A DNA stretch of 63,543 nt, filler included, from Stramenopiles sp. TOSAG23-6 (taxonomy: Eukaryota): NCBI GenBank assembly GCA_900128565.1. It is 11 parts of 11 records of this genome, joined end to end, with 100 filler letters (N's around TTAATTAATTAA, not from the genome) between each part and the next. Parts side by side here need not be neighbours in the genome. Positions count along the whole stretch, not along the records: positions 6,852 to 13,593 come from LT636654.1; positions 13,694 to 20,432 come from LT636655.1; positions 20,533 to 27,259 come from LT636656.1; positions 27,360 to 34,084 come from LT636657.1; positions 34,185 to 40,900 come from LT636658.1; positions 41,001 to 47,710 come from LT636659.1; positions 47,811 to 54,511 come from LT636660.1; 4 more parts are not named here. One strand, 5' to 3'. The stretch's first letter is position 1, and every line of letters starts with the position of its first letter. The notes under the pieces were generated by a model. It was not told where the DNA came from and did not search any database. It saw only the letters and a list, made by a program, of their open reading frames with translations. Positions 6,918 to 54,458 of the stretch are shown in pieces. A program made the position numbers and the translations under genes.

Positions 6918-9188
6918 ATACACCCATGACTAATTGTCTCACTCAGGTGAAAAGAGCCGTTGGTGTTTTATTACTACAACCGAGAAATAATCGAAGAAAT
7001 GGTGGACGAAACCCTAACCCTAATTCTGATGGGAAACTAAATATCACAAATGGTAGTGTTAAGCCTACTATACTATCAGATCCATCAGAAATATTCCGAG
7101 AAACAGGTAAAATTACTTCACTCAAAGAATCGTATGTTTTTTTTTGTAAACCCTAACCCTATTAGTATGAATTTCAAATTTTTAACTTTTTTTTTTTTTT
7201 TAAATTTTTTTTAATTTTTTTTTTTTAATTTTTTTTTGTACTATGAAAATTTGGTACCTAACATTTTTTTTTTTACTGAAAAAAAAAAAAAAAAAAATAT
7301 TCCTTCACAATACATCTTTGGTTTTATCAAGTCCACTGAAAGAACAAAAGATGTTTTTTTTCATTTTTCAGATATTCTTCCAAATTATAATCCTACAATC
7401 AATGATGATGACACTCTTACCCCTAACCCTAGGGTTAACCCTAACCCTAGCACAACGTCTACAAGTAGGAAAATGTTATCTAAAAGTCAAATTTTAGCCA
7501 TAGAACAAGGCAAAAAGGCAATGCATCCTGATGTATGTATCCCGGAAACACCGTTTCAAGTAGGATCAGAAGTTGAGTTTGAGCTTAAAAATTGTAACCC
7601 TAACCCTAACCATCATTCAGGACATTCAGAACGGCGTTCAAATCGAAAAGAGAGATTGACGGCTACCCGCATATGCTTATTGCCACGTGGCACTATTAGT
7701 TTTGATGAAATTGTTGCTGAGAATGTCATTTGTACGATCAAAAGAGCTTTGCTTCAAACAAATACATGTACGTTTTATTTTTTTTTTTTNAAATTTTTTT
7801 TTTGAATTTTTTTTCATACGAAATTTTGTACCTAACAAATTTAAATATTTTTTTTTGAAATATTTTTTCACAATACATCACGACATTCAAAAAAACAGAA
7901 TAATAAGGGAGGTCGTGGTCTTATTGGATGGATGTGTTCAAACGATTTTGAGCAAACGTTTTCGAAGAATCAATCGAATCTTTCTACTAACCCTAACCCT
8001 TCTAATAATTCCAAGGTTGATAACCCTAACCCTAATTCTAAGGTCGATAACCCTAACCCTAATTATAAGGTTGATAACCCTAACCCTAATTATAAGGTAG
8101 ATTCAACTTTAGTTTCAACATTGTCTACTATTTCTAATCATTCAATGGTAGATTCAAAAATGACGTCATCATCGAAACAACAAAACAAATGCATTAATCT
8201 CTATTTTACTGCACGAGATGTAAACAAAGTAAATGGTGAAAATGTTGCAAAAACGCTTAACCCAATGGATGAAATTAAATGTATGTATTATTTTTTTTCA
8301 ATTTTTTTTTTTACAAAAAAATCGAATTTTTTTTTTTTTTTTTTGGTAAAAAAATTTTGTACCTAACAATTTTTTTCAAATTTTTTTTTTTGAAATATTT
8401 TTCCAAAATTCAGGGACGCTCCGACTCATTCTTAAAAATGAAGGTGAGATTTGGCCAATTTTAAATTATATTTCTAATTTATATGAAAACAACACGAAAA
8501 ACAGTGAAACATTTATGTATTCGTATTTAGATCTAAAAAATAAAATTAGGAAAAAATTTGGTACAAAAATGTGGAATTCGTGTAAAACACGAATTCAAGA
8601 GTTTTTAGTATTATTATCCAAAGAATACGAAATGAAACATAAAACAAAAGAGGAAAATCCAAAAAATCCAAAAAATGAATTACATCAAAAAAGATTTTTA
8701 CATATGACTTCAAATGTATATTTTATTTTCAATTTCGAATTTATTTTTTTTTTGGTTTTTTGGTTTTTATAAAAATTTTGTACCTAACGATTTTTTTAAA
8801 TTTTTTTTTGAAATATTTTTCCAAAACAAATGCTATCACTAAAGCGACTATCGCCTCTGCATCTAGAAACGGTTACATACGTCACAAAAATCTTACCCCT
8901 ACAAATGACACGTGTCAAAAAAACACGGAACAAAGAAAAAAAAGTAGAATGTTTATTCCAACGGTACATAATGAGGGTATGCACTGGTTGTACGTATAAT
9001 TTTCATTATGATTTTTTTTTTTTTTTGAAATTTTTTTTTGGTATGAAATTGTGTACCTAACTTTTTTTTTTTTTTTGAAATATTGTAACAAAAACATACC
9101 AATTGTATTAAAAAAAGTTCCATTGACACCATTGTATATTCAATCAGCAATGGGGCTTCGAGTATGCATAGATATGGATCCACATTAA
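6918..9188 (+). CDS. Cold-shock-domain (CSDE1/UNR-like) protein, partial, multi-exon: 6918-7131, 7316-7767, 7879-8280, 8414-8715, 8832-8989, 9098-9188. Exons after 8413 may belong to another gene
   Basis: GKITSLKESFGFIKSTERTKDVFFHFSD, VGSEVEF, ATRICLLPRGTISFDE; all five junctions are phase-compatible. Confidence 0.7.
7132..7315 (+). other. Family intron GT-AT
   Basis: Restores the RNP1-like motif LKESFGFI; no AG is available before that motif. Confidence 0.85.
7768..7878 (+). other. Family intron GT-AT
   Basis: Phase 1; joins ORF 7236 to ORF 7932. Confidence 0.75.
8281..8413 (+). other. Family intron GT-AG
   Basis: Same internal motifs; ends TTCAG; phase 1 into ORF 8515 frame. Confidence 0.75.
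8716..8831 (+). other. Family intron GT-AT
   Basis: Phase 0; joins ORF 8515 to ORF 8760 frame. Confidence 0.7.
8990..9097 (+). other. Family intron GT-AT
   Basis: Phase 2 into a short terminal exon. Confidence 0.6.
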
Positions 9189-9493
9189 TCCACATTAAAC
9201 ATTACTATTTACAATAAAAAAAAAAAAATTGTTTAAAATTGTAAAAATTTCGTTTATTAGAAAATTTAGATGGGACTATGTCATTCTTCATATTATCCCA
9301 ACTTATCTAACAAATTCAACTCAATTATCATGGTGTTTTTCATATCGTATATATGAATGAATATATATCCCAAATCATCATTAATAATAATGAAAACATA
9401 AGTACGTACAAAATTTGTCAATTTTTTGGAAAATATCCAAAATATCCAAAATATCCAAAAAAAAAAGCATTTTGCTCAAATCCTCAAAGAGTT

Positions 9494-10697
9494 CTAGCTG
9501 TATCCTCTCCCTTCACATACTTTTCGTTGGTTGTTAAAAGGATTCATTGGAGGTTTATAAATTGTGCGGAAATTAGGAATTGGAGTATTTTTATTCCAGA
9601 CAACTTTGGTTCCTTCTGTATGTATTTTGGAAAAATACTTCAAAAAAAAATTTTTTAAAAAATCGTTAGGTACGAAATTTCGTATGAAAAATAAATTTGA
9701 TTTTTTTGTTAAAAAAAAAAAAAATACATCTGTATGAGTGCCACATCTTTCTAAGTAGTTTTTGTCAGCATATTTCTCGATGAATAAAAGACCAAGGTAT
9801 GTTGTGTCAAAGAATATTTAACAAATCTGATTTTTTGTTAGGTATATATAGTATTGTATATAGTATAAACATAGAAGTACATTTGAAATTAAGAATGGAA
9901 ATGTACATGAAGCAGCTTCTTTGCACCATACAATGTCCATTGTATAAGCGTCTGGAGGGCAGGCACTGTCCAATCCTGTTTCATGCACCACATAATAGCT
10001 TTGTGTTGTTTTGAATGTCAAGAAGTGTAACATGTAAATAAAAATATCATCAAAATATAAAAAACATTCAATGCATACCCATCATCGTATACAACATACG
10101 TTCTGTTATGTGCATTATATTTTAATCTTTAATTGAATGGTTAAAATGAAAAATGATGTAATAATCAAAATATGTAGGATATGGTGAAAGAGAAAAGACG
10201 AACCTCGGTGTAGGTGTGGGTGCAGTTGTGGGTGGAGGAGGAGGCGGTCCCGGTGTTGGCGCAGGCGTTGGTTGGTTCAAGGCTTTAAGAAGATCCATTT
10301 GCAAACCCTCAAGCCGATTTTGGACTTTTTGGATTTCAGAATCGGCTTTCTTTATTGGGTCGTATCTCGGGGGAGGTGGGCCAAGTCTACCATTACCCAC
10401 AAATAGTGGAACGCTGTCCATTCCATGTGGTAGAGGATCACAACCACCGTCACAACCTTTAGATGGAGTATCATCTACAGCAATTGGTGATGTCAAAGGA
10501 TCTGCCGTTGTCTTACCCACCGATTGCTCTGATGAAGCTCTTTGTGCTTCTGAAATGTGTTCTTTATGAGTTGCAGAAACGCGATTGCGAACAAGTTCCA
10601 TTTGTTTCGTTTGAAGAATCTTTGACTTTGAAACTTTTATCGCATTACTTTGGAAAAAAATCATCATAAGAACTGTACATATTTGTATGACTCGCAT
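9494..10697 (-). CDS. Secreted Pro-rich/Cys-domain protein; exons 10697-10204, 10102-10079, 9998-9907, 9798-9728, 9619-9494
   Basis: Signal peptide MRVIQICTVLMMIFFQSNA; spliced C-terminus CPPDAYTMDIVWCKEAASYLGLLFIEK...CGTHTDTEGTKVVWNKN; two canonical GT-AG introns (10103-10203, 9999-10078) plus two family introns. Confidence 0.65.
9620..9727 (-). other. Family intron GT-AT
   Basis: Phase 0; open frames on both sides. Confidence 0.65.
9799..9906 (-). other. Divergent family intron GT-AT
   Basis: GTACATTT...TACCTAAC...AAATAT-15nt; gives CKEAASYLGL. Confidence 0.65.
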
Positions 10698-12735: not shown

Positions 12736-13207
12736 TTCAGCCACTTTTTCAAGTAAAATATGCTTTGATGTATCTAGAGCATGTTTGTCCATTGCTCTTT
12801 TTTTTGTACTAGAACCAAACCCTAACCCTAACCCTACATTTCTTTTTGTACTAGTACCAAACCCTAACCCTACATTTATTTTTGTTGAAGATTTTATCAT
12901 TCTGATTTTATATACCCAAATACAAAATGCATTTTGTATTTGTCTCTGTATGGAACGTCTACAAAAACATTTAAGTAGAAAAGTTTTTGCTTTTTTATTC
13001 ATTTTCAAATTTTTTGAAATTTCGTTTTTCAATTTTTCATTCATTTTCAATTTTTTTGAAATTTCGTTTTTTAATTCTTCATTTTCTGTTTTGTAGAATG
13101 TCATTTCTTTTTTCAAATCAACACAGACTTTGACAACCTGTTTATATCGTTGTACATTTATTCGACTTTTAGGGTCATTTCGAGCATTGGTTGTACCGAC
13201 ATTTAAC
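12688..13207 (-). CDS. Terminal exon of a coiled-coil protein
   Basis: Open frame preceded on the minus strand by a family-type 3' end (TTCACAATATAT). Confidence 0.55.
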
Positions 13208-13782: not shown

Positions 13783-14382
13783 ATGGACATTAATATGTGA
13801 CAAATTAATCATCCAATCATTAGCCTGTGTTTTGATATTCATAAGTGTTTGTTTCACTTTTCCTGATGGCATTTCATATATATCTAAAGTTTTTGTTGGG
13901 ATCGATGAAGCATCTGGGAGAAATCGATTTGTAAAATAACCGGAAATTTTCGAAGGTTCGAAGATTTCTTCCACAGCCTCTTCTATTGGAGGAGCATTTA
14001 ATCGCTCACGCGTTTGTATTAATGCAGTCTGATGTGATGGCAAACGATTGAGGATAGATACGACTTCCGGTGATACAGGAAAATATCTGCGAATATCACC
14101 ATCTTGGGTTTTTCGTGCTAGTCTTTTATATAGATTATCACGAGATTCTTTTCCCCCAACTTGTTTTGGTTGTTTCTTTGCAGTAATTGCCAATCCTGCC
14201 AAACCCCCAGGATTGATTTTATCTGGAACATCTCCAGTGTGAGCGCTTTTCGTGTCTTCATTTGATCCGTATTTCATTTCGATAAGTCTATTAGTCCACA
14301 TTTCGATATAATGCTCTGCTGAGAAACGACCAGTTAATACATTCATTTTTATGACCTTTATGCTTTCAATATCAATACCTGG
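13783..14382 (-). CDS. Internal exon of unknown protein between two family introns
   Basis: 200-codon open frame PGIDIES...HINVH bounded by TACAT| and |GTATGTTTT. Confidence 0.65.
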
Positions 14383-14494
14383 ATGTATTTTAGAAAAATA
14401 TTTCAAAAAAAAAAAACTTAAATTTGTTAGGTACAAAATTTCATAGTAAAAAAAAAATTCGAATTTCAAATTTAAAAAAAAAAATAATACATAC
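14383..14494 (-). other. Family intron GT-AT
   Basis: Full consensus, phase 0. Confidence 0.75.
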
Positions 14495-15514
14495 ATTTTT
14501 TTCTTTTTTTTTTTTTGAATGTAATTTTAAATGTAATGTTGCATTAGGGTTAGGGTTCATTTCATGGAAAATGTAACCTTCGTTTTGTAGTGTTTTCAAA
14601 TCAGCTCTATATAAAATAGACTCTACAAAACCATCTTTATTTACTTTATATGTATTTTGGAAAAATATTTCGAAAAAAAAATCTAAAAAAAATGTTAGGT
14701 ACAAAATTTACTATGAAAAAAAAAATTCATACAAAAAAAAAATATTTCGAAAAAAAAAAATCTAAAATTTTTTGTTAGGTACAAAATTTCGTATGAAAAA
14801 AAAATTCATACTAAAAAAAAAAAAATAAAAAAAAAACATACATGCGCCATGTTCTAATGCTGCGTATTGTGGAGCACAAGGTACAGCAAGGACAGTTATA
14901 CCAGGCTTTGAAAAGTTAAAACCAGTATTGGTATCAGTATCAGTATCAGTATATTTTTTTTTTTTTTTTTCATCATAAAGATTGTGTTTATATTGTGCAA
15001 TTAATTCTTCTGAAAGCCGAAGATCAGAATCAGCATTTACTACCCAAAAACCAGGAGGTGAGTTGGAAATATGTCGAATTGTGTTGAGTACGGACAGTGC
15101 ATTGCCAATGTGTCCAAACAATTCCGACGGGTAACCATGTTTTGAAGGAAATGATGAAAAAAGAGGAACACGTTTGAGAGCAGTGTCTGTAGAGAGGAGA
15201 AGAATGTGAAGACCTTCCAGACGATCAGAATTTATAAATGTGTCTCCTGCAATTGCACTGAGATGCTCTGCAATGACAAGATTGGCATTAATAAAAGCCC
15301 CACCAGATCCAACGTATTGTGTACCAGGATCTGCAACAGCAATGAACTTTGTTTTTTGATGTATTTCTCCACAACGTTGCCGGCGAATCAAATCAGATAC
15401 GTGAGCATGAGCGTGTTCTTCTTTTGATGAAGAAACAGCAATAATATCCCACGGAGCAAGATCCATTGAAGATGCCACAACTTTTTCATTTGAAACTATT
15501 GAGGAAGATGTCAT
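14495..15514 (-). CDS. L-fucokinase/GDP-fucose pyrophosphorylase-like N-terminal region; exons 15514-14842 and 14649-14495
   Basis: WDIIAV, VADP..VGSGGAFINA, SPPGFWV; spliced HGAYKVNKDGFVESILYR resembles FCSK HGVYLTDPQGLVLDIYYQ (recalled). Confidence 0.75.
14650..14841 (-). other. Family intron GT-AT with duplicated internal core
   Basis: Two TACCTAAC cores (~14695, ~14775); restores HGAY. Confidence 0.8.
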
Positions 15515-15795
15515 TGGTATGAGTGTGTGAAGTACAAATGGCGTACAAATGTCTCAATAATATTCTTTACTTCAATTGTTTCATATATAATATTAGTATT
15601 ATATGTTTGACATGTCACCACAAAAAAATGTCATATATGAATTAATTGAAATTGAATTATTGAACCGACGAATTTTCTATACGAATTTGCGAATTTGCTA
15701 CGAATTTCGAATTTAAAAAAAAAAAAAAACAAAGTCAATATTGAATATTGAATTTTTTTATTCATACAAAAATACATAATAAAAAAAAAGAAGAT

Positions 15796-16362
15796 TCAAC
15801 TCATCTTTGGATGTATTGGATTATCGTTATATGAAGCATATTCTGCCCAACTACCATCATAGAGAGAGACTAACTTCATTTTGTCATTTGTTTTGTCATT
15901 TATTTTGTCATTTATTTTGTCATTTATTTTGTTAGGGTTAGGGTTACATTGCTCATTCACTTTTCTCTTTTTATTGTGATTAACCGACAAAGATTGAAAT
16001 TGAGTTGATTCAGACTGTATATAATTTACTGCCAAGGCAACAATACACGCTGTGATACCACTACCACATGTAACAACAATTGGTTTATTTACATCTACTT
16101 TTGTTTCGGAGAATATTTTAATCAATTCAGTTTTATTTTTGATAAAGACATGATCACTAGGGTTAGGGTTTGTTTCTTTTTCTTCAAAAAAATTTGTAGT
16201 TTTTGCTAATAATGATGTATATGGAATATTGAAACTTTTTGGTATATGCCCACTAGAAATATCATGTATTGTAGAGGAAGAGAAAATGTAGTTCAAATAT
16301 TTTGTTAGATACAAAAAACCGAAAAAACGAAAATATTGTGCTACTTTTTATGAAAAAAAAAT

Positions 16363-16393
<31 letters not shown>

Positions 16394-17132
16394 AGTCATT
16401 TGGAAAATGTACTTTTCGTGGTTCTGGTTCTGTTCCATTAAATCGACCTGGAGATCGAGCATCCACCACTTGTACGGTATTTGATGTAATATTATCAATC
16501 ATTTGTTTCATAGTAAACACAGTTTTTGAATCTTTCTTGAAAAATTGTTGAAATTGTGTTTCATCTAATGATTGTGTTTCATCTAATGATTGTGAGATAG
16601 TAGAGGTAGTAGTCGATTTCGATTTTTTTAATGAACCTTTTTCTAATGGAAACCCAGAGGAAATCCAGAAAGGTAACCCACCATTCAATACAGCAATACG
16701 GTTAGCAGGTATACCAAATAAGCGAAATGTATACCATACTCGAGGAGCGCTGAATATACCATGGGTGTCATATACCACAATTGTAGAGTTTGGTTTAATT
16801 CCTAGTGATCTGACATGGTTTATAAAGGAATCATTTGTAGGTAGCATATGTGGAAGAGTATCATTTTCAAGATCACTTATTGAATCAATATCAAAGAAGC
16901 GAGCTCCAGGAATGCGTCTTTCTTCAAAATGTAACTTTGCATCCAATTTGCTATTTGGCATGAACCAAGTGGCATCAAGAATAATGAGATCATTTGTTTT
17001 CTTTGTTATTTCCTTGTGTAACCACTCACATGAAACAAATCCAGATGTATTCATCGAACTAAAACGATTTAATGAAAATTGACGACAATGTTGATTACAA
17101 GACAAAACTATATTACGAACATACTGTTTCAT
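15796..17132 (-). CDS. 3-mercaptopyruvate sulfurtransferase/rhodanese; exons 17132-16413 and 16263-15796
   Basis: RIPGARFFDID, LPHMLP, DARSPGRF, CGSGITAC active site, LYDGSWAEY. Confidence 0.95.
16264..16412 (-). other. Family intron GT-AT containing a telomeric tract
   Basis: Restores EPEPRKDISSGHIP (family pattern EPEPRxGxRSGHIP) without an indel; no AG near the 3' end gives an in-phase stop-free join. Confidence 0.85.
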
Positions 17133-17705
17133 GTAAATAATCTTTTTTCGACGTAATAATTATTAAATTTTTGGTGATACAAAAGTATCGACTGTGACTA
17201 TCATTGTCATGTCTGTTATGACCTGTCAAAATTCAGTATGTATTTTGTCCAATGTTTCGTGTTATTCTTACTGCAGCTAGCTAGAAAACTACTACTACTA
17301 CTACTACTACTACTAGCTAGCTGTAGAGTACCAGTAGTAGTGCTATACGAATTATAATATATAGTTAGTTTAAATGTAAGATTATAATATATACTACGTA
17401 GTTAGTTTAAATGTAAGCAAATTTATAAATTTATAAATTTGCTATTACGTAATATAATATAATATAATATAATATAATACAAAAAAAAAGATTATTTTTG
17501 TTGATATGTGCGAAGAAGACCTATAACAGTTCTGATTATTATAGATATTATGGAAAACGCAAAAAAATCAACAAAGTCATTTTTAAAGAGAGAGTTTTAT
17601 TCATTCCAACTCTTCATAGAGTATAATATACAGGTTCCTGAGGGTTTGCCACGAAATATATTTTTGATTAAGTTTCTCACCCAATGACAATAAACAAATG
17701 TCATC

Positions 17706-18488
17706 TTAATTTGTCAGAGAAAGTAACAAAGTAGCGAAAAGTAATACCAAAGAAGGGACAATAAGTGATGGATTATTATTACAGAGATTTCCGCTGCAAG
17801 TTTTGAAAGATGTACATTTTACAGCCGTAACACCCTTGAAGTACTCTTCAGCTTTGTCTGCCGAATCCAGGAATTTCTGATAATCTTCACAACTTTTAAA
17901 CTGTTTTCGAGAACAAAAACCACCTTCCCCAGTTATGCTTGTACCATCCTCCTTTGTGCCCGAAACTTCCATTATCGCACAGTCATAAGTACTGTTGTCA
18001 CAAGTCACTTCTGTTTTTTCAGCATCGGAAGATTGTTTTGGAACGCTTTTATACCAAGAATAACACCTCTTCTCATTTCCCCCATCATCTACCCCATCAT
18101 TACAAAGATTTCCGCTGCAAGGTATGAAAGATATACAAGCTATCTTCTTAATATCCCCAAAGTACTTTTTATATGAAGTGGTGTCCATCGCCTTCAGCTC
18201 TTTCTCAAAAGCTTCACAATTTTTCCACTCTTTTGGAGCACACGCACCAAGGTCCCCAGTTATGCTTGTACCATCCAATGTGCCCGAAAGTTTCATTGTC
18301 GCACAGACATAAGTACTGTCTTCACAAATCATTTCTTTTTTTTCAACATCGCCAGTTTGAACGTTTGTTTCCCATTGATAACACGTCTTCTTCTCATTTC
18401 CCCAATTGCTTTTAGCGTCAGCACTGGCATTACCGGCCTTACTGACAATGATCAGTGCAGAAAAGGTAATCAATGGTAAAACTTTCAT
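17706..18488 (-). CDS. Putative GPI-anchored surface protein with two Ly6/uPAR-like Cys repeats
   Basis: Signal peptide, two ~105-aa repeats each ending CSGNLCN, hydrophobic C-terminus. Confidence 0.75.
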   Translation of the reverse strand: MKVLPLITFSALIIVSKAGNASADAKSNWGNEKKTCYQWETNVQTGDVEKKEMICEDSTYVCATMKLSGTLDGTSITGDLGACAPKEWKNCEAFEKELKAMDTTSYKKYFGDIKKIACISFIPCSGNLCNDGVDDGGNEKRCYSWYKSVPKQSSDAEKTEVTCDNSTYDCAIMEVSGTKEDGTSITGEGGFCSRKQFKSCEDYQKFLDSADKAEEYFKGVTAVKCTSFKTCSGNLCNNNPSLIVPSLVLLFATLLLSLTN

Positions 18489-18784
18489 GTTCTGTGGAAA
18501 AAGTAAAGTACAACCGTAAGATATTCTACCCGTAACGCTGTAGTAGTAGTACTAGTCAAAAAATTTAAAGATCGTAAAGTTTGATTAAAAAAAAAAAACG
18601 TTGGTACCGGGTACGTAAATTTATTCGATGAAATGACGTTGACCACCAAAACCTAAACAAACAAAAGAGCAAAAAAAAAGAAGTGAAAAACAACAACAAC
18701 ACTAACTTTTGATATAATACATTGAATATTCGTTTTGTCGTGGCACCGATAAACCTATATAGGAAACTAAATCATTCAACTTCA

Positions 18785-20376
18785 ATGACAGATTCATCCT
18801 TGTATTCAGTGTTTCAGAGCACATTTTGTTTTGTACGTCGTGGCCAATACATGGATGCTCTGGCAACATTCAAGAAAATATCCGCAATCTCGATATCTTC
18901 AGATTTGAGTGTTCCAACATATATAGCAGAGCTTCTTGTAGCAACAAACACTGTCATTATTTCTCTACAGGTACATTCTGACAACACTACATACGATAAC
19001 CGTAGTGAGAAAGTATTGTATCTTCTCCGACGTGTTCCTGGACTATTTGAGTTTACTAGACAACACCATGAGTTGATGCAAACACATGTCGAAACTTTAA
19101 TTGTTGACATTGTTTGCGGTATCACACAGCTCGGTTTACTCTACGACATTCCATTGACACATTCTATTATAGATATGTCACTTGAATGGTTTCATTCATT
19201 TCATTTATTGAGAATGAATCATACTCTGACAAAATCTAAATTACAGACACATGTCACTGAAGCAAAGTCATCATGAACGTTTTATTTATTTTTTTTTTTC
19301 CGGTAAAAAAAAAATCGAATTTATTTTTTATAGTAAATTTTGTACCTAACAATTTTTTTTTTATAGAAAATTTTGAAATATTTTCCAAAATACATTGTTG
19401 TCGAATTATAATTCTTCTCATGGCACAAACTCCAATCTAGATTACTTGATACAAAAAATACAACATCTGTGTATAAGAAAAACATTATCATGTTTGTTTC
19501 AATGATACATTTCAATTTTTTTTTTCGTACGAAATTCTGTACCTAACAAAAAAAATTTCGATTTTTTCTACAATATTTTTTCACAATTCATTGAACCTAT
19601 ATATTCGATTTTTGTTACTCATCATGACATCTAGTTTAAAAAGGAAACGTTTTGATTTCGTGCTTTTGACGAGTACGAAGTTGTGTGCGGCACTGCGAAA
19701 CCCTAACCCTAAAGATTGTAACAACACTACTAAAAATGAACAAAATGAAACAAATAAACATTACAAAAAAAATTTTCAACACGAGGAAATTTGTTATGAT
19801 ATTGATGAGATTATAAGTATATCTTTACTAAAGTCTTCCTATCTACAGACAATTTCATTCATTCATTTTGAAAAACTCCAAGAAGCAATTTGTTGCATTG
19901 ATCGTGTATGTTTTTTTTCAATTTTTTTTCAATTTTTTTTCAATTTCGAATTTTTTTTTTTTTTGGTTTTTTGGTTTTCGTACGAAATTTCGTACCTAAG
20001 AAATTTTACAAAAAAAATATTTTTTCACAATACATGCAATTCAAGAATTTCAAGAATTTCAACAAACCCTAACCCTAAGTGGAACGATTCCAAATGAAAA
20101 TATAACAAATAATTCAAACAAAACAAACAATTCAATATATATAACACAAGAATATCGTACCTATGGTGCTTCTTTATTTTTATCTGGTTGTATACATTTT
20201 TCTTTATCTTTTGACAAAAACCCTAACCCTAATGAAAACAAACATAAAAACCCTAACCCTACCACTGAAACAAAAAAAGCAAAACAAAAACATTGTACAT
20301 TAGCTCTAGACCGGTTCCAGCGTTGTGCACGAAATCGCTTATATTTACCTATCATTTCAACATTTATGTCTGGACT
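18785..20376 (+). CDS. TPR-like helical protein, 5' part; exons 18785-19274, 19396-19491, 19592-19905, 20036-20376
   Basis: Continuous open frame after removing three family introns; a fourth starts at 20377. Confidence 0.65.
19275..19395 (+). other. Family intron GA-AT
   Basis: Starts GAACGTTTT (family GTACGTTTT); removal eliminates a TGA and keeps frame. Confidence 0.65.
19492..19591 (+). other. Family intron GT-AT
   Basis: Phase 1 into ORF 19591. Confidence 0.7.
19906..20035 (+). other. Family intron GT-AT
   Basis: Phase 0 into a 113-codon open exon. Confidence 0.75.
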
Positions 20377-20593
20377 GTATGTTTTATTTTTTTTTTTTAC
20401 AAAAAAATCGAATTTATTTTTCGTACGAAATTNNNNNNNNNNNNNNNNNNNNNNNNNNNNNNNNNNNNNNNNNNNNTTAATTAATTAANNNNNNNNNNNN
20501 NNNNNNNNNNNNNNNNNNNNNNNNNNNNNNNNACGAAATTTTGTACCTAACAAATTTTAGTTTTTTTTTTTGAAATATTTTTCCAAAATTCAT

Positions 20594-27205: not shown

Positions 27206-27359
27206 ATGTATTTTGGAAAAATATTTCAAAAAAAAAACTTAAATTTGTTAGGTACAAAANNNNNNNNNNNNNNNNNNNNNNNNNNNNNNNNNNNNNNNNN
27301 NNNTTAATTAATTAANNNNNNNNNNNNNNNNNNNNNNNNNNNNNNNNNNNNNNNNNNNN

Positions 27360-33945: not shown

Positions 33946-34184
33946 ATGTCGTATGAAATAATATTTAAAATATTTTTTTTTAAGTACAAAATTTTGTATG
34001 AAAAAATATAATTTTTTTTTTTTTGATTTTTTTTTTTTTTTTGTTTGGTACAAAATTTTTTTTGAAAAAAAATATTTAAAAATTNNNNNNNNNNNNNNNN
34101 NNNNNNNNNNNNNNNNNNNNNNNNNNNNTTAATTAATTAANNNNNNNNNNNNNNNNNNNNNNNNNNNNNNNNNNNNNNNNNNNN

Positions 34185-40100: not shown

Positions 40101-40900
40101 TTTGATAATGGAAAGTTTGGGAAAGACGAAGAAGCTTTTGAAGCACCGTTTAATTATAGAGCACTGATGGGAAAATTAATATTTCCGATCTGCATGTGTA
40201 GGCCGGATCTTGCGTATTCTGGAAATGCGATTGGTAGTAAAATGAATGATCCAGGTAAAAAGGATTATATAGCTTTGTTGCACGTAGCAGGGTATCTTAA
40301 GAAACACGGCGAAAAGGGATTAGTATATGGTAGAAAGTTTAATATAATTCAACGTTTAAACGTAGACGGAAGGATTGTAGAGAAATTATTGTTAGATCCA
40401 GATGCACCTTTACAGATTTTTGTAGATGCAGCTTTTTGTGGAGACGCGAAGGGAAGATCAGTATCGGGAACAATAATTGCAAGTTATGGAAGCATAATAC
40501 ACTGGAAAAGTCAACGACAAGGTAGCGTTGCATTAAGTACAGGTCACAGTGAATTAAATGCTATAATAACTGGCGCGCAAACAGGTATATGGTTGAGAAA
40601 TCTTCATATCGATTTTGATTGGAATGGCGGGAAGCCGTTGCCACCGTCAGATCTATATGAAGACAATAATTCATGCAAAGCACAATGCGAGCATGATACA
40701 AATTTCAAAGCGACAAGACACGTGACAACTAAGGTTCATTGGATGCGTGAGCACGTGAACGATCATACTTTTGATATATGGAGTTGTAGTACAGGGTTGA
40801 TGATCGCGGATATTGGGACAAAATATTTGGCAAGGATAAAGTTTCATGGATTTGTCAAGTATATGATGGGAAATCGGAAAATCAGGGAAATTAGATTTGC
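34185..40900 (+). mobile_element. Ty1/copia LTR retrotransposon internal region (LTRs not in contig)
   Basis: gag-like ORF to 36050; pol order protease (LDTGS), pre-integrase HxxLxH..CxxC, integrase (FDTAGPF), RT (KARLVARGF, KSLYGL, HVDD), RNase H (FVDA, EDN, ADIGTK). Confidence 0.95.
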
Positions 40901-41051
40901 NNNNNNNNNNNNNNNNNNNNNNNNNNNNNNNNNNNNNNNNNNNNTTAATTAATTAANNNNNNNNNNNNNNNNNNNNNNNNNNNNNNNNNNNNNNNNNNNN
41001 ACAAAATTTCGTACGAAAATAAATTCGAAATTGAAAAAAAATAAAACATAC

Positions 41052-44000
41052 ATTAACTCAATATCATGAGCAGCCTTCAATTGTAAAACATTTTGAATTT
41101 GACCTTGCAACAACATCAATTTCTTTATTAGTTTGTCCACAAATTGAGAATCTCTTGCCCGTTGATTATCGATGGATGCAGTTAATTTCTGAATTTCGTC
41201 AGTATTATCTGTAATGATGATTGATTTTTTTTCTATTTCTAGTCGATGCATTTTGTCTTCTATTGTAATTTTTGCACCCTTTTCATAAAGTTCTATTTGT
41301 GTTTCGAGGCATCGAATACAAATACGGATAGCATTTTCTTGGGTTATCATTTTCTTCTGCAGAGAGAGAGATTTTTCATGCTCCATGGCGAGCTGAGAGA
41401 CTAAGGCATCCTTTTCTTTTTCAAAGAGCAATTCATTGACATATGTGTTTTCCTTGAATGTTTCAGAGCTATGTTTGTGTAATCTTAATAATCTTGCTTC
41501 CCAATCTTTGTATTTGTGCTCATATACAGCGTCCGGGTGAGCGATATTAATAGATCCATGCTTCTGTTGCTTATCATGAAGGGAATAGTACATTGTCTTA
41601 TTAATCGATTGTTGCTTTTGTTGCTTTTCAAGTGGGGAATAATACATTGTCTTCAAATATATTTGCATACGATTTAGGTTAGTATTGACCTCATCAATGT
41701 GTTCCCGTCTTATGTCCGTTACGCGTTCTGACAAATAATCCTGCCATGATTGCTTTATCTGAACTTTATCTTCTTCATTTTCTAAAAATTGAATTTGCAT
41801 TTCTTTCAGAAAACATTCATGTAATGCAAAAAAAATATGTTAAATTCAAAATTTTTGTTAGATACAAATATTGGTACAAAAACAAATTTTGAATTCAATT
41901 TGAAAACGTACATATTTATGGCATATTTCAATGTACAAAAGAGACAATTCAGTTTCTTGTGAATTGATTCTATGCATATTAATTTGCATCTGCTTTATAA
42001 AAGCAGATTGCTTTACCCTAAGACTGTGTAATTTCAATGGACAATCTTTGAGTTGATCGGAAATTTTGGTGAATTCAATCATACGGTTCTTTGAATAACT
42101 TTGATCATTTATCAGTTGGACTTCCAAGTCTTCTATTTGTTTTTGTACCTCATATATATCCCTCTTAAATTGTACTTCTGATTTTAACACAGCATCTCTG
42201 TTGGAATTTTCACGTTCTGTGCAATCATCTTCACGTTGTCGCTTGCGTTCTTTTTCCGTGGCAATCTGTTTTTCATAGAAATGTCTCTGTTCTCCATGTA
42301 TCTGTTGCAGCAGTTCTGTCCATTCGGCCTGAAGTCTTTTAGTTACGCTTTCAATAGATTCTTTGCGCTTCCTCGCTTCTTCGATATACACTGATGTTAT
42401 CATTTTCTCCATATGACGTTCTTCTTTTATTGATAAAAGTTCGTTGCATTGGGCATTCTTTTGTTCATATTTAGAAATCTTTTTATCAAATAAATCCCTT
42501 TCCATTTTGGCAGCGAGTTCCTCCACTTGGAGGAGCTCGCATTTACTGGAGAGAACAGATATTGACCCCCCAGTGGCCAAGGTTTTCTCCAAATCATCTT
42601 CAACTGTAGCAAGACGTTTATTCACATCATCATGGGCATTTTTGAGCCTTAATAAATCTATTTCATTGGCACTCGTAAGCTGTGCTTCCTTTTTACTGAG
42701 TTCCTCTTCACTTTGTTGTAAATCATGCTCACAAACCGCCTGTTTCGTTTTGAATTCTTCACCCAATTTGGCACTAAAGTTGAACATACAAGTCTTACAT
42801 GCTGCAATCAGTTTCATATTTAATATTTTTTTATTTGCTCGCCGAAATTCATTCTCTGTTTTCTTATACTTTGCTTCCAGCCAAGTGAAATTATACTGTC
42901 GTAAAGTCTCAATAATTTTCTTATCATGGTGTAGTTTTTGAGCAGCTGTAAGCATTTGCTGCTCATGTCGATCCAGTCGACACTGTGAATCAATCAACAC
43001 TTGCTCAGATTGTGCTTGTGTTAGCTGCAGTTTTCTCAATTCTTGAATGCGTTGTTGTTTTTGTAAGTGTGCTGTCTCCAGCTCCTGATCATTCAAATGC
43101 GCACAACTTAAAAATTTATCCCGAAGATCATTGTTTTCAATATGCATAGACTGTATTAATTTTGCTTGTTTTGTGATGCAAACATCTAAAGCCGACTGTG
43201 CAGTATACTCATCATGCTTTAATTCTTTGGCCTTTTCTTCATATTCGTATTTTGCATTCATCGCATTCTTCACTAGACTGAGTTCTCTCGTAAGGGTTAT
43301 CTGCCTTTTCTCTTCCATCATCTTTTTTAAGTCGTCATCCTTTTTAGGATTTCGACTCACAAGTCTTTCGGATAATTTCATCGCTTTTTCTTGCTCAAGT
43401 TTACGGATAGCCTTTGAATTAGTATCTTGCTCGGCAGAACGTAATTCAATTTCCATTAATTGTAATGTCCTCCGCCATGCTGAATCAAGCAGTTTGCTTT
43501 CTTTGCTCAAGACTGGCTCTGAAGAAGACATTATTAGCTTTTCAACATCATCAGTTTTCTCGTAAATGTGATTTTGTCCAGTGATATCATTGGTAAAGTC
43601 TTCGCTTGTTTTCTTTGATTGCTTTTCTGATAACTTGATTTGAGTAATTTCAGATGTTGTATCTTTTTCATACTGGCAAAGTTCAAAACAAATTTTCTCC
43701 TTCTGAGAGTCAATCTTCCATTTGCGTTCGTTCAATACATTCCTGCGATGCATCGCATCCCTTTCGGCAGCAGCAAGATTTGCAAGAAACTCCTTTTGTT
43801 TCTGAATCCCAATTCTTCCTAATCTAATTTTCCATAAGGCTTTTATTTCTTTGTAAGCTTCGGATTTTGGTTCACAGCATTCTTTATCACTTTCTAATTT
43901 ACAAATTATCCCAATTTCATTTTGACTCCCCGCTTTTTGTATACAATCTTGGAGCTTAATGCGTTCGATACATTGACGTAATTTAGCATTGAAGCCTTCC

Positions 44001-47000
44001 CACAAAATCAGATTTTGTTTTTCTAATTTTACTTCTTGTTGGGCTATGTATTTTTCATTCTGCACTATTTTTTTGCGGATCATCAAAATTGTTTTCTGGA
44101 GTTTATGAGCTTTATTTTCTAATTGTATCATACTTTTTGCATGCCTTTCTTGTAAAATACATTCTTTTTTGCAAAGCTCAGTTACCTCATGAGAAGCCAT
44201 AGTATGATGTTCTTTTAGTTGGTGATTAATCAATAAAATTGCAGAATTGTTTTCCTTTACATTTAAGTCCATTTGAGTTTGGATCCGAGCAAAACGTCTC
44301 TCTACATTTTCGGTCATATTACGAAATCTGGTTTGCTGTGACCGTGCATTTTCTCTTGCTTTTACTTGCTGTGTATAAAAATCACTTTTATCTTTGGCGA
44401 TTTCATCTTCTATTTTTTTCATTGGGGTTATTAAATCTGTATCTTTGAAGGTTTTAGTTGCTTCCAACCGTTGCTTCATTTCGGCTCGTAGACTTTTTGT
44501 AGTTGTTTTACATGCCTCAATCTCAATTCTATGCACACATTTCATGATTTCAATATCATGTTTATAAAAATCCAGGTCGTTTCTCTCTGTCATTATAAAG
44601 CGTTCTCGATTAATCAGATTACTACATTGTAAAGATTTGAGTTTGATTCGTTCTGATTCAAGCTTTAGCAAATGGGCTTTGGAACGAAGAACTTTCATTT
44701 GTGCCATTTGCTTAGCCAACTTATCATTCTGAGCAATATGCAAAGCTTTCTGCTTTTCAACAAGTATCATGTATTCTGATTCACTCATTCCTTCTGTGAT
44801 TTCTGATTCACTCATTCCTTCTATGATTTCCGCGTTTAAGTCTGATTCACTCATTCCTTCTGTGATTTCCGCGTTTAAGTCTGATTCACTCATTCCTTCT
44901 GTGATTTCAGCGTTTAAGTCTGATTCACTCATTCCTTCTGTGATTTCCGCGTTTAAGTCTTTGCGATCGAATAAATTCTTTAACTTTGTATGCTCCTCTA
45001 AACTCTTCTGCAAGTCAAGTATTTTGTTGGTATTCTCTAGTTCCTCAATGCTATTTTTTTTTGCTAGTGCGATACATTTCTGTTGGCCTTTTTCAGCTCG
45101 TTTTGAAAGTTCTGTTTCTCTCCTCACATGATCTGCTTGAATTGATATAATCTTGTCAGAAAACTCCTTCACTTTCTTTTTACTTAATGTTTCTAGCTTC
45201 CCTTCCACAATGATCTTTCTCACAATCTCATTAATAGTTCTATTGTTTTTAAACTTGCTATTTTCTAATTGCAGAAGGCGATTTTCGTTTTCCTCAACTT
45301 TTTCCTGGTTGATATGGTAAAAAATTGCCTTTTCAGACATGAAGGACTGGTGTTTACCAACAATTTCTTGTTCTTGATTCTCAGCAACTAAACGGTTGAT
45401 ATATAACTCAAAACGAAGATTTAGTAATTGAATTTCAGCCTTTCTAGCTCCATTAATTGAACCAACGGTATCGAGCTTCTTCTGAAGTAAATTAATCTTT
45501 ATTTTGAGATTTTTCTCATTTTCCTTGTAAATATTAGAATCAATATTATCTTGAGTGTTTGTTTCCCTTTCGCGTTCACGTAACTGCTTCTGAAGTGATA
45601 ATAAAACACCGTTGTTCTCTGAGATATATTTTTTGAACTCAATGCGATTCCGCGGATCAAGTTCTTCCAAGCGCTTATTCCACTCGAGTTTCAAATAAGT
45701 ATCATTTCTACTTTTACTTTGACTTTGTATGGATACTTGAACATTACTTAAATCATGTTCTATTTTTTGAAGGTGTGACTGCCATGTTGAAAGTGCAGCG
45801 TTGCAAGAAACACTCATATTTGTTGCTAGATCAATTTGTCGCTGTTTTAGTTTTTCAAGCTTTTGTCTAATTTTCATGATATCCTCTTTAGCGGTTTTGT
45901 CTTTTCTCTCCAAAATTAAAATCTGGTTTTTCCATTTTAATTTAGGATCATTTACATTATCAATTAATTTCCCTATTTTATGTTGGGCTTGAATTATATT
46001 CTGTGGTATTCTACGCTGCATATCTTTCAACTCGTGTGATGTTTTCTCGGCTAAAACTATTGCTTGTCTAAGTTCAAGATTTGCCCTTTTTATGGATGTA
46101 TCTATGCTATCTAGTAAGTTCTTATAAGTATCTTCATTTTCTTTCAGTCTATGATTTAAATTATTCTCGCATGTATCGATACGAGATAAAAATGTTTTAT
46201 ATCGATCTTCCTTTATAAAAGCAGAAGAAGTCTCTATTTTTGTTCTTAGATACTTTATAATGAAAGTTCCAATCTTCCGACGGCGATCTGATTCCATTTT
46301 GCAAATATCAATTTCATTTTGCTGAAGACAATGCTGCCAGTTTTTATCCAGCAAGATTTTCTCTTGCTTTAGACGAAAAGTAAAAGCTTTCACAGAATTT
46401 TGATGTTCCAGTAAGTCATTTTCATTATCATTTTGGGCAATTTGTAAATAATACATTCGTTTCTCAAGCTGTTCTTTATTTCTTTTGTCAGAATGGGCAA
46501 GATGTTCCGCCAGATTATGAACTTCGCTAGCTAGTTGGTTTCCACGACTGACTATGGCAGCTAAGCGAAAAGACTGTGATTCTTTCTCTTGCATTTCATG
46601 AACTTTAATTGTCTCGTTTTCTTGCTTCATTTGGATGTGACTCCTTGACACTTGCTTCATAAAATTAAGGACCTTTTCATCTTCTACTTTTGCAAGACGC
46701 TGTTTCCACTGAATTTGCAATCTTTCTTCTATTTCCTTACTACTTATTTCTCGATCTTCTTGCTCCTGTCTTTGAAGCTCTAGTTCATGAGATACCAACT
46801 TTAGCCGCCACTTATTACACTGATCATCTCTTTCCTTTTGATGGATAGCTTCTAGCTCTTTTTCTTTTGCGAAATGTTCCTGTTCTTTACGCTTGCAATC
46901 GGCATCAAGAGTATCAAACTGCGAATCTTTCTGATTCATATTCCATTGGTACTCAGTCCATTTAGCGTGATGTGCTTTTTGTTTGGCAACGAGTGTTTCT

Positions 47001-47149
47001 TTTACTTTTAGTGATGGTACTGAATTATTATTTATCCTACTGACATTCTCCCAGAGACTCTGCATACTTTTATCATGTTGTACTTGCTTCTGCAGATGAA
47101 GGACTTCGTGTTTCTTCCTTTCAGCTAATATTTTCTTCTTGGTTGCCAA
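41052..47149 (-). CDS. Very long coiled-coil protein; exons to 41912 and 41818-41052
   Basis: 1763-aa and 283-aa ORFs joined in phase 0 by a family intron; start uncertain. Confidence 0.75.
41819..41911 (-). other. Family intron GT-AT
   Basis: TAT|GTACGTTTT...TATCTAAC...TTACAT|GAA. Confidence 0.75.
44775..44960 (-). repeat. 39-bp coding tandem repeat (DLNAEITEGMSES) x4 plus partial copy
   Basis: Visible in DNA and protein. Confidence 0.9.
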
Positions 47150-47544
47150 TAGTTTTAGTCCCTGTGTAGATATATCTTGTGCCTATTAAAACGTTTTGAT
47201 CACATGCAATGCTTCTCGGATTTCGCACCCAATAACACATTTTTGTGGCAATATCATAAAATGGTAACTTGATTACGTTCGAATCGCTTTCTAAACAGCC
47301 TCCAGAACAATCAAAATGAGCTTCGAGTGCTTTACACGAGTTTGTATATATTAGAGCTTCATTAACGCAATGTATTGTGAACAGTTTTGCAAAAAAGAAA
47401 AGTCTTTAGATACGATTTGTTTTTTTTTTTATAAAAATTTTGTACCTAACAAATTTTATTTGTTTTTAAGGATTTTTACGATTAGATTTTTTATTATAAG
47501 ATTTTCGTAAAAAAATAGGTAAAAAATGTATGATGAAAATATAC

Positions 47545-47652: not shown

Positions 47653-47889
47653 ATGTATTTTGGAAAAATATTTGAAAAAAAAACGTTAGGTACAAAATTT
47701 CGTATGAAAANNNNNNNNNNNNNNNNNNNNNNNNNNNNNNNNNNNNNNNNNNNNTTAATTAATTAANNNNNNNNNNNNNNNNNNNNNNNNNNNNNNNNNN
47801 NNNNNNNNNNAAAAAAATTAAATTCGAAATTTGTTAGGTACAAAATTTCGTACGAAAAAAAAAATTCGAAATTCATAATGAAAACGTAC

Positions 47890-48572: not shown

Positions 48573-48965
48573 GTTTCACCACGGTGATACACAGTAGTTC
48601 AATGCACCTCGTGGAGAAAAAATGTTTTTAGTCTTCGTTTCTGAAGCTGTAAAGTATCTTTTTTTATGATGCGGATGTAACGGTTGTACCTATATCGCGA
48701 AGATATTTACTAATAATAATACTACGTAGTAAAATTCTATACGAATATTTAGCTACAGAATTTCGTACCTAAAAAAATACTATGTATTTTTGACAGCTGA
48801 TGAAAAATAATATCAGTCATCACTCATCATCGCGCGCGGAAGTGAAGTGTGTTTCATTCTTCTATTAACAGTTTATGTAAACAGCTCTTACATCGGATTG
48901 TGTGCAGGGTAGCTTAGGTAATATCACCCACGATTCGTTTCTGTAGTTTTTATATTTGAATAAAG

Positions 48966-53447: not shown

Positions 53448-53657
53448 CTTTTGAGAGTTGCACTTGAACTTGCTTCAAAAAAGAGGATGTATTAAAAACA
53501 TGAAACCGTAATGACCACTCGCACTACCTTCCCGAATATTTTTGGTACGGAATTTCGTACCTAACGGAATCTGTTCGAAGCGTGTGGATACTCTACCACG
53601 GGATAAAGTTTCAAAATAGAACTTTTTTACCTTCCCGTAAGAAATTGAATTTTAATA

Positions 53658-54458
53658 ATGCCTAGAAGCTTTAAGCGATGGCTACAAGCGTTTGATACTA
53701 ATTTAGGTAACTTGTATGGAGTAATGTTTGAAACATCACGGGTAAAGGTTCGTGATCTAGGTTTGTTCCCCATAGTTCCGAAGTCTACTAGTGTCATTGT
53801 TAGAAGAAACATCTTCCCAGTTCGTGTTGGGGATATCGTTGCACTTCTTCCCGGTACAAATATGCTCAACAATAGTAATAGATCAATATCTCAGAACCAG
53901 GAACAAACTATTTTTAGAAAAGTACAAGCCCTTCCGGGAGATGAAATGGATTCTGCTGATGGTATAACTCCTAGTTTTTTTCTTCCTGACTGTGAATATT
54001 GGTGTGAAGTAGAACGACCCATTGAAGATAATAATGACGTTCTAGATTCGAGTGATTTTGGACCAGTAATATTACCGATATCAGCCAGCAATGGCATTTC
54101 CGAAACACACGCATGGTTAAACCGATATGATATGGATACAACACCATACTTTATCTATATATGTTTTATTTTTTTTTCAATTTCGAATTTATTTTTCATA
54201 CGAAATTTCGTACCTAACAAATTTTTTTAGATTTTTTTTGAAATATTTTTCCAAAATACATGGTCGGGCGATATTCCGAGTTGAAGAGGCGGATGAGGAT
54301 CCAATAATAGGGAAACCAATAATTGCCTCTAATAAAGCAGAATTGGGTGAAACTAGTGGACTTCGTCTTTTACAAAATAATCCAAAGTCAATGCAGGAGG
54401 ACAAGGCTTATGCTTCTCTAGTGAAGCATTTTTGGATCGATTATATATATAGAAACAT
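53658..54458 (+). CDS. S26 signal peptidase/IMP-like fold protein; exons 53658-54158 and 54262-54458
   Basis: GDIVAL, RKVQALPGD, DSSDFGPV, spliced IYGRAIFR. Confidence 0.6.
54159..54261 (+). other. Family intron AT-AT (slides to AT-AC)
   Basis: Starts ATATGTTTT; phase 0 gives YGRAIFR. Confidence 0.7.

Follow-up and report, generated by a model that had tools for sequence, protein, structure and literature searches.

In Micromonas pusilla and Aureococcus anophagefferens, the available text of two studies describes introners as DNA transposons resembling miniature inverted-repeat transposable elements (MITEs), which create introns and whose terminal inverted repeats (TIRs) and target-site duplications (TSDs) are co-opted as splice sites (PMC11282704, PMC7789003). 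For the MITE-derived introns of Fritillaria borealis, the portions available to us state that the major spliceosome is thought to have adapted (PMC11282704; bioRxiv 2025.08.15.670264). The accessible parts of two introner surveys (PMC9860276, PMC12130899) mention no stramenopile, no marine stramenopile (MAST) lineage, and no GT-AT class, and one of them states that a family whose splice sites were unfamiliar was kept only with RNA support. The excerpts available of the papers on single-cell genomes of uncultured stramenopiles and on an Incisomonas metagenome-assembled genome (PMC5778133, PMC8163842) are silent on intron ends. Here, we analyzed a 63,543-nucleotide stretch of DNA from Stramenopiles sp. 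TOSAG23-6 (assembly GCA_900128565.1), hereafter the window, and found that all of its recognized introns belong to one repeat family of ~90–190 nt (typically ~110 bases), present in unrelated genes, in which a GT 5′ end is paired with a predicted 3′ end that mostly reads AT. We consider it reasonably probable that these introns are copies of a non-autonomous, introner-like element that inserts at AT and is removed as a GT...AT unit by the host spliceosome.

Because positions 54612–61308 are an exact repeat of 1–6697 (one contig is present twice), the unique sequence of the window amounts to 1–54611 only, and this part holds 23 complete family introns, of which 22 lie within 7760–54261, as well as 10 partial copies at contig ends. 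The genes that host them encode MFS_2, cold-shock (CSD), rhodanese, EF-hand, and bHLH domains as well as unknown proteins. Every copy is built in the same order, with GTAYGTTTTATT at the start, a T-rich stretch that often contains TTTCAATTTCGAATTT, then TTTTTCRTACGAAATTTYGTACCTAAC, a T-run, GAAATATTTTT, and finally CCAAAATACAT or CACAATACAT. Written as a consensus, this layout is GTAYGTTTT, a T-rich part, a palindromic core with GTACCTAAC, the T-run, GAAATATTTTT, and a conserved 3′ block that ends in (C/A)AAATACAT. The 5′ splice site GTAYGT is yeast-like, and the palindromic core, GTACGAAATTTCGTAC, is followed directly by a branch-point-like CCTAAC at a median of 43 nt from the intron end (n = 21). 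An alignment of 18 copies yielded a 108-nt consensus with a mean pairwise identity of 0.72 (range 0.55–0.91), and the columns conserved best were the initial GTA, GTACCTAAC, ATATTTTT, and a near-terminal A. The similarity also covers the spacers, and both sub-variants and internal duplications (14650–14841 and 32838–32984) can be recognized. The core motif TTTGTACCTAAC, allowing for up to two mismatches, occurred 53 times, as compared to 7.7 expected occurrences. The family carries short TIRs (GTAT(G)TTTT versus AAAATAC): The imperfect inverted repeat that the initial annotation had described between GTATGTTTT and AAAATAC is indeed present, and upon inclusion of the adjoining AT, it becomes a perfect 6-nt pair, ATGTAT...ATACAT. 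A pairing of GTATG with CCAAAATACAT and of GTACG with CACAATACAT, which would point to sub-families, showed no significant association among the copies (8/5/1/4, P = 0.29).

For the intron boundaries, the donor was taken as the G of GTAYGT, and the acceptor, placed by homology within the family, follows ...ACAT or the homologous TT. The last two intron bases are AT in 17 of 23 introns, TT in 2, and AG in 4, and an A stands at position −2 of the intron end in 21 of 23. Where a contig end leaves only the 3′ half of a copy, this half finishes in CAT in all five cases, namely, 1–59(+) (...AAAAAGCAT; the same sequence recurs at 54612–54670), 6852–6917(+) (...AAAATACAT), 20533–20593(+) (...AAAATTCAT), 27206–27259(−) (...AAAATACAT, upstream of the bHLH-domain exon), and 47653–47710(−) (...AAAATACAT). 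The 5′ dinucleotide is GT in 21 of 23 introns; a GA donor is found at 19275–19395(+) (CAT|GAACGT...AAAATACAT) and an AT donor at 54159–54261(+) (TAT|ATATGT...AAAATACAT|G). The four AG ends were assigned by reading phase. At 8281–8413(+), where the exon ends in AT, the AG site (...CCAAAATTCAG, TTCAG) is the only one in phase; 23743–23831(−) ends ...ATACTGAAG after an exon ending in TT; 28872–28980(+), in the EF-hand gene, ends ...AAAATACAG (ATACAG, a single base away from ACAT) after an exon ending in AT; and in the composite copy 32838–32984(−), which contains two cores and follows an exon ending in GT, the AG lies 4 nt before the family ACAT (TTTTTAG|ACAT).

The coding frame agrees with these boundaries. 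Ends are unambiguous in 17 copies, and in 16 of these, the longest open frames on either side of the intron were in phase, where chance would give one-third per copy; the 17th (8716–8831(+)) fits through the length of its 162-nt exon, with another open frame being longer. The intron at 8994–9097(+), whose donor is ambiguous (GTAC|GTATAA, at 8990 or 8994) and which ends ...AAAAACAT, was excluded from this count. Comparison with homologous proteins allowed a separate check at two loci. For the diverged copy at 16264–16412(−) in a mercaptopyruvate sulfurtransferase-like gene (GTACAT...CAATACAT; exon ending in AA; telomere-like hexamers inside), exon 1 could be aligned with chain 5wqj_A as far as residue 197, leaving a single residue unaligned, and residue 2 of exon 2 aligned with residue 200; the corresponding residues of 3olh_A are 210 and 213, and the colinearity is exact, with no residue missing or extra. 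A relative with 50% identity (P0132) displays the same spacing across the intron. For the intron in the MFS_2 transporter gene at 4934–5043(+) (GTACGTTTTC...CACAAAATTT; exon ending in TC), residues 79–194 of exon 1 matched positions 3–118 of the Pfam MFS_2 profile, followed by two residues, and the match resumed downstream of the intron at profile position 122 (nucleotide 5046). Since the profile is thus colinear, the 3′ end lies after CACAAAATTT, a block homologous to CACAATACAT, which gives a TT end. Similarly, the intron at 7132–7315(+) (GTATGT...CACAATACAT; exon ending in TC) splits the cold-shock domain in phases 2+1, and the match to the CSD profile picks up again with the codon that opens the next exon. 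Searches with exon 19594–19905 for spliced products and with the CSD exon 7317–7766 against longer proteins gave no match. Judged from these alignments and frames, most copies appear to use CAT| as their 3′ splice site and a minority CAG|, and the unit removed would begin with the G of GT and end with the T of ...ACAT. A public gene model of the organism itself (P0131), retrieved with the sulfurtransferase-like exon as query, illustrates what happens otherwise: It is 100% identical to exon 16413–17159(−), reads beyond ...EPEPRK into the intron 16264–16412 until it stops, and also omits an internal stretch of exon, and its structure therefore argues that the automatic annotation forced canonical splice sites upon this gene.

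The dinucleotide that precedes the GT on the exon side was AT in 12 introns, GT in 3, AA, TT, and TC in 2 each, and AC and AG in 1 each, and the first base of the downstream exon was G in 9 of 21. We prefer the GT...AT register because 21 of 23 introns begin with GT, the upstream pair varies as exon sequence does, and the 3′ pair is limited to AT, AG, or TT, as expected for a signal. The initial annotation had pointed out that such junctions can slide by 2 nt and be read as AT-AC, which raises the question of U12-type introns with the form |ATGTATG...ATAC|. This slide holds for the 12 of 23 introns that follow an exonic AT, for which the AT-AC reading yields the same mRNA, and the CCTAAC of the family resembles the core of the U12 branch site. 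It fails for the remaining 11, in which the intron, once shifted, would begin with TC, AA, GT, AG, AC, or TT. U12-type introns carry the 5′ splice site RTATCCTT and, a short way upstream of the 3′ end, the branch site TCCTTAAC; in this family, RTATCC was found at the 5′ site in 0 of 21 introns in either register, and CCTAAC lies at the median distance given above. We therefore regard a U12-type identity as very improbable.

Next to the predicted AT at the 3′ end, we observed a pronounced excess of AT on the other side of the intron. Of the 23 complete introns, 12 follow an exon that ends in AT; when all donors are counted, including the partial ones at 13782, 41051, and 54459, the figure is 15 of 28. 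The background frequency of AT before GT in this DNA was 0.118 (636 of 5387 GT dinucleotides, both strands), yielding a binomial P = 1e-7 for the 15 of 28. The last exon base was T in 17 of 23. The counts of the initial annotation (AT in 12 and T in 17 of 22 introns) thus recur almost unchanged in an independently built catalog. Its four further donors, 13782(−), 41051(−), 47544(−), and 54459(+), all follow AT, and 47544 turned out to be the start of a complete intron; its list did not include two partial donors that lack AT, 47889(−) with GA and 20377(+) with CT. When exon flanks were shuffled against 3′ ends (21 introns), the summed match length was 39, versus 30.2 after shuffling (P = 0.019), and matches of at least 3 nt occurred in six introns (P = 0.021). 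The enrichment of AT is very strong, and the two-sided co-variation of the copies that deviate from it is only modest.

A few of these deviating copies favor a direct repeat over a complementary one. At 22774–22874(−), which has a TT end and where an in-phase AG at intron position 71 is also possible, the CTT noted previously at both ends extends to a 5-nt match, with AACTT on both sides (exon ...GAACTT|GT, intron ...AAAACTT|). At 8716–8831(+), the exon flank CAAAT equals the intron end CAAAT, and at 19492–19591(+), TCAT equals TCAT. A 2-bp TSD of AT is a plausible reading. A 5-nt duplication (TACAT) was rejected, given that exon positions −5 to −3 are not conserved and those of the intron are. 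By a rough calculation, which is not a test, a neutral exonic AT would have been retained in ~0.7 of the copies at ~15% divergence from the consensus, and the observed fraction was 0.54. Helitron or Tc1/mariner-like origins of the AT were considered as well; the termini of the family do not appear to fit either of them.

The family is abundant well beyond the window. We aligned four sequencing runs to the contig at 13694–20432: three seawater metagenomes (X3, X4, and X5) and one polyA metatranscriptome (X6). In X3, bins that contain the element reached summed depths of 10,081–44,817, versus 0–11.7 for the element-free bins of 13,919–19,093, a difference of roughly a thousand-fold; such summed depth is not a copy number and can be read only as pointing to the order of at least a thousand places. 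In total, 8881 contigs matched in X3, 2970 in X4, and 3504 in X5. The similarity of these contigs stops sharply at the limits of the intron. At 13784, i.e., at the AT upstream of the minus-strand GT at 13782, loose ends were found in 40 contigs of X3 (agreement 0.36) and in 12 of X5; at 20035/20036, the T of ACAT and the base after it, they were found in 42 and 55 contigs of X3, where copies diverge from the intron at 19906–20035(+) (CGT|GTATGT...CACAATACAT|G). The flanks beyond these loose ends were unlike one another (agreement 0.36–0.47). Among the X3 joints listed, the match to the 13782 donor ended 1 base past the GT in 4, 2 bases past it (AT) in 43, and 3 bases past it (CAT) in 24; these are the best-supported joints and give the mode, not a frequency. 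Because the similarity ends at those limits, the repeated unit comprises AT plus GT...ACAT. A 17-nt pattern was also searched in public contigs and located at 77 metagenome and 6 viral loci, of which only L052, an unrelated metagenome contig, carries the element (one copy, in phase, with ACAT on both sides), the others being chance matches. Within the assembly itself, the eight full contigs have 16 ends, 11 of which lie inside a copy, as expected because a high-copy repeat breaks assemblies.

These data bear on the possibility that we are looking at ordinary, perhaps old, introns that resemble each other simply because they share long obligatory splicing signals (the 5′ site, hairpin plus branch point, T-tract, and 3′ block), with AT being part of the 5′ context. 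Such a reading would fit with the fact that every recognizable intron of the window is of this type, that the best-conserved columns coincide with the putative signals, and that the mean identity is just 0.72. It is at odds with the similarity of the spacers, the sub-variants and internal duplications, the breaking of assemblies within the element, the thousands of contigs that carry it in one metagenome, and the fragments and core-only pieces outside introns. Furthermore, an exonic AT is evidently not required, because it is absent at 13 of 28 donors. We consider ordinary introns quite improbable as an explanation.

The orientation of the copies is relevant to the way in which the family may have spread. 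Every genic copy, whether complete (23) or partial (10), runs in the sense direction of its gene. This raises the possibility of spread via RNA, where an excised intron would reverse-splice into a transcript at ...AT|G... and subsequently be reverse-transcribed and recombined into the genome, such that the AT would reflect a site preference along with palindromic ends. Sense-only genic copies, the lack of full-length intergenic copies in the window, unit ends that coincide exactly with the splice boundaries, the G that begins the downstream exon in 9 of 21 cases, and the presence of a copia-type reverse transcriptase in the window would all suit such a route. Conversely, the flank matches of 4–7 nt in a few copies and the short TIRs are features seen more typically in DNA elements. 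The intron at 47370–47544 contains an antisense core, core-only pieces occur outside introns, and the reverse splicing itself is hypothetical. Spread through RNA is, in our estimation, unlikely.

Removal at the level of DNA rather than RNA was weighed in the same way. Ciliate internal eliminated sequences are short and bounded by a repeated dinucleotide, and the copies described here are likewise short and AT-rich, interrupt coding sequence in all phases, and show a dinucleotide repeat of which one copy would be kept. They also contain a full set of spliceosomal signals (GTAYGT, CTAAC, and T-tract), and do so solely in sense; the closest relative of the host that has a name is a stramenopile, and no element-free DNA contigs were found among the joints listed for the three metagenomes. 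We know of no nuclear dimorphism in stramenopiles. DNA-level elimination accordingly strikes us as extremely improbable.

We thus return to a non-autonomous introner-like element removed by the host spliceosome, for which the following scheme can be drawn. A 5′ splice site, a branch point, and a pyrimidine tract would all come with the element, which supplies the hairpin-flanked CCTAAC and the T-tracts. It would insert, most likely, at AT and leave AT on both sides, and the removal of GT...ACAT, with the 3′ cut after CAU, would restore the original exon. The host spliceosome, presumably of the major U2 type, would accept A-U where A-G is usual, and a single-base change from ACAT to ACAG, as seen at 28872–28980, could turn copies into canonical introns. 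Of the MITE-like origin put forward by the initial annotation, the high-copy family resembling transposable elements, the short TIRs, and the predicted GT...AT units are supported; the AT duplication is a hypothesis. A broader proposal, that a MAST-3-like heterotroph gained most of its introns from one AT-duplicating element, that its major spliceosome routinely uses CAU|, and that the CAG| copies are becoming canonical, is offered tentatively, and we would rate its chances at somewhat below even. With the same caution, we suggest that such a GT-AT splicing system may be neither of the U12 type nor of the euglenozoan kind and may have been missed by standard gene callers.

Several observations weigh against these proposals. 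First, the AT cannot be assigned to a duplication from the sequence because AT is self-complementary: AT...AT may be read as a direct repeat, as a 2-bp extension of the inverted repeat, as splice-site context, or as a pairing partner of the exon end. The informative deviating copies number only three to four, the TT-ending intron at 4934–5043 with its exonic TC shows no co-variation, 9 of the 21 tabulated introns have no flank match, and the pair shuffle lends support at just the P = 0.019 given above. Second, regarding mobility, no empty site or insertion polymorphism was seen among the X3–X5 joints listed or at the metagenome pattern loci, and an autonomous element or transposase with the same termini, for which the initial annotation had recommended a search, was not found in the 54.6 kb of unique sequence. 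The sole mobile-element protein domain in the window is the copia-type reverse transcriptase. Full-length intergenic or antisense copies, which are expected for a cut-and-paste DNA transposon and whose absence therefore counts here, were not seen in the window either, where only fragments and core-only pieces are found in such places. Most copies are not very recent, since their mean identity is 0.72.

Third, with respect to splicing, protein homology does not separate the GT...AT register from a 2-nt shift, as the shifted product has the same length with a single residue altered (one site would have K or N, another S or I), and the relative P0132 is no arbiter between K and N because its junction residue is P. 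Between CCTAAC and the 3′ end, no AG occurs in 14 of 21 copies, and in the other 7, an AG is present and apparently skipped; because of these 7, a first-AG rule does not explain the choice of the 3′ end. A conserved RNA structure joining the intron ends is likewise unsupported: RNAalifold found 0 consensus pairs in 18 copies, and six single folds were no better than shuffled sequences (z from −2.1 to +0.7), with terminal GUAU/AUAC pairing in three of the six minimum-energy folds. In the polyA metatranscriptome X6, of which contigs only were available, the element was present at high depth, and no exon-exon joint was found among the joints listed. One X6 contig (14256–14406) runs 24 nt from exon into intron and is either unspliced or DNA. 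X6 contigs that end at 19271 and at 20035 with 17–20 unmatched letters are compatible with splicing and are no proof of it; one RNA contig among them spans 20035–20230 and ends at the 20035 junction with 20 unmatched letters. Stretches that lack RNA coverage are uninformative on splicing.

The remaining copies of the catalog are as follows. Upstream of an AT-ending intron, the exon flank at 7768–7878(+) reads AATACAT, identical to the last 7 nt of the intron. The copies at 9620–9727(−) (AT|GTATTT...AAAATACAT), 14383–14494(−) (AT|GTATGT...AAAATACAT), and 14650–14841(−) (CAT|GTATGT...AAAATACAT, with an internal partial duplication and two cores) all follow AT, as does 41819–41911(−) (TAT|GTACGT...GCATTACAT|G). 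Other exon ends are found at 23482–23577(−) (CAA|GTACGT...CACAATATAT), 31061–31161(−) (AAG|GTATGT...AAAATACAT|G), and 31278–31418(−) (CGT|GTACGT...CACCAGACAT). The intron at 47370–47544(−) is family-like (AAT|GTATAT...TTCACAATACAT) and holds the antisense copy of the core mentioned above. Five 5′ parts reach a contig end: 13694–13782(−), with the donor G at 13782 and the exon ending in CAT; 20377–20432(+), ending in CT; 41001–41051(−), in AAT; 47811–47889(−), in GA; and 54459–54511(+), in ACAT.

Some related sequences lie outside this catalog. Core-only copies of the palindromic core (GTACNAAATTTNGTACCTAA) were observed beyond introns at 4069–4095, 32660–32682(−), 33535–33582, 48750–48791, and 53537–53570; three of them stand upstream of genes in gene orientation, one is translated within an exon, and one is antisense in an open reading frame (ORF). 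A role of the core as a promoter motif was considered and dropped in view of the exonic copy and the antisense one. At 23100–23235(−), two tandem 5′ halves of the element (GTAAGTTTTTATCATGAATTTCAAATTTATTTTTCATACGAAATTTTGT...) occur just past the stop codon of a gene, showing that fragments persist outside coding sequence. The length of the T-run differs widely among copies, with ~40 T after the donor GTATGT at the contig end 54470–54511. At 47160–47260(−), the exon frame after the intron 47370–47544 is not continued into the 1774–amino acid (aa) ORF at 41858–47182(−), which could be due to a frameshift in the draft sequence or to an unrecognized intron.

Another small repeat was also noticed. 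At 30 sites in 1–54611, on both strands, we observed a telomere-like unit of fixed size, (A)AACCCTAACCCTA(A), made up of two hexamers; examples are at 7010, 7987–8090, 12818–12871, 16366–16393(−), 19699, 20065, 20219, 20249, and 33086–33900. Within coding sequence, it is read in frame as NPNP or TLTL, and in the sulfurtransferase-like gene, NPNP lies inside a 16-residue insertion relative to solved homologs. The unit resembles a further type of small insertion.

The window as a whole is a chain of ~6.7-kb contigs, ordered by length and joined by linkers of 44 N, TTAATTAATTAA (with stop codons), and another 44 N, which start at 6752, 13594, 20433, 27260, 34085, 40901, 47711, 54512, 61309, and 62427; several contigs contain scattered single Ns. 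The GC content is ~0.24–0.40 along the window, long frames are open with the standard code, and the domains encoded are eukaryotic (cystathionine beta-synthase, MFS_2, copia-type reverse transcriptase, cold-shock, rhodanese, EF-hand, and bHLH). No matches were returned when the window was scanned with Rfam and for tRNAs. At 34137–40952(+), two long purine-rich ORFs of 637 and 1633 aa were found, with no family introns; because the second ORF bears the copia-type reverse transcriptase domain, this contig is a retroelement. The cystathionine beta-synthase ORF has its best named relative in Incisomonas marina (EukProt; 68% identity), followed by Ploeotia and Diphylleia (61%), and unnamed environmental proteins reach 80–82%. 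DNA of the window was matched in two small runs labeled 'organism A', in seawater metagenomes, and in a seawater polyA metatranscriptome. The host is probably an uncultured marine stramenopile near Incisomonas/MAST-3, a placement taken from one protein. A diplonemid or other euglenozoan origin, with nonconventional introns, was dropped in view of Incisomonas marina as the best relative (for this one protein) and the presence of a bHLH domain.

Should RNA confirm the predicted ends, most introns of this genome would combine a canonical 5′ site and branch point with a 3′ end other than AG, and the organism would offer a natural system for studying this pairing. If that holds, the choice of a 3′ splice site without AG would become testable, with U2AF, step-2 factors, and the contact between G1 and the last intron base as candidates, and a heterotrophic stramenopile would be added to the short list of lineages whose splice-site rules have been reshaped by transposon-like introns. 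The change from ACAT to ACAG would, likewise, represent a one-mutation route from element-derived to canonical introns. For such organisms, gene callers that insist on AG yield wrong models, as with P0131. We found no published description of this GT-AT family in a literature search that covered parts of the papers concerned.

Compared to the systems described so far, the family shares with the introners of Micromonas and Aureococcus, as far as the available text portrays them, the many similar short introns in unrelated genes, the TIRs, a short junction repeat, and, as predicted for the family, an element that supplies one splice site such that splicing restores the exon. Those introners have canonical splice motifs and direct repeats and TIRs of constant length (PMC7789003, in its accessible part), whereas in this family, 17 of 23 copies have AT at the 3′ end, the repeat is only 2 nt long and palindromic, and both mobility and duplication are hypothetical. 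The introners of Amoebophrya (Syndiniales), another marine protist, are similar in being repeated noncanonical introns with inverted repeats at their ends and direct repeats at their boundaries; the same partial source lists inverted repeats of 8–20 nt that fold into hairpins, direct repeats of 3–5 nt, diverse boundaries, and a U1 small nuclear RNA that was not detected (PMC7789003). In contrast, we find a conserved GTAYGT, one dominant family, an inverted repeat of 4–9 nt, and no stable predicted fold. The MITE-derived introns of Fritillaria borealis (AG-AC and AG-AT) resemble the family in their TIRs and in TSDs, which are putative in the family, in allowing AT at the 3′ end, and in an exonic repeat that mirrors this end, according to the portion available of PMC11282704; they differ in belonging to an animal and in having a noncanonical AG 5′ end and diverse boundaries, whereas in this protist, the 5′ end is GT and only the 3′ end departs. 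The nonconventional or intermediate introns of euglenids and of hemistasiid and eupelagonemid diplonemids also end in sequences other than AG, carry short direct repeats where exon and intron meet, have ends complementary to each other, and are suspected to derive from MITEs, as given in the accessible sections of PMC12621601, PMC6221363, and PMC11282704. These same sections describe them as having no U1-type 5′ site and a stable end-to-end structure, unlike the copies described here, with GTAYGT plus CTAAC and no stable predicted structure. From U12-type AT-AC introns, which half of the copies formally match in reading AT...AC, the family departs in its 5′ site, its branch consensus, and its branch-to-3′ distance. 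Relative to the known introners, what would be new in this family, as predicted here, is thus the pairing of a canonical GT 5′ end with a 3′ end that is mostly AT.

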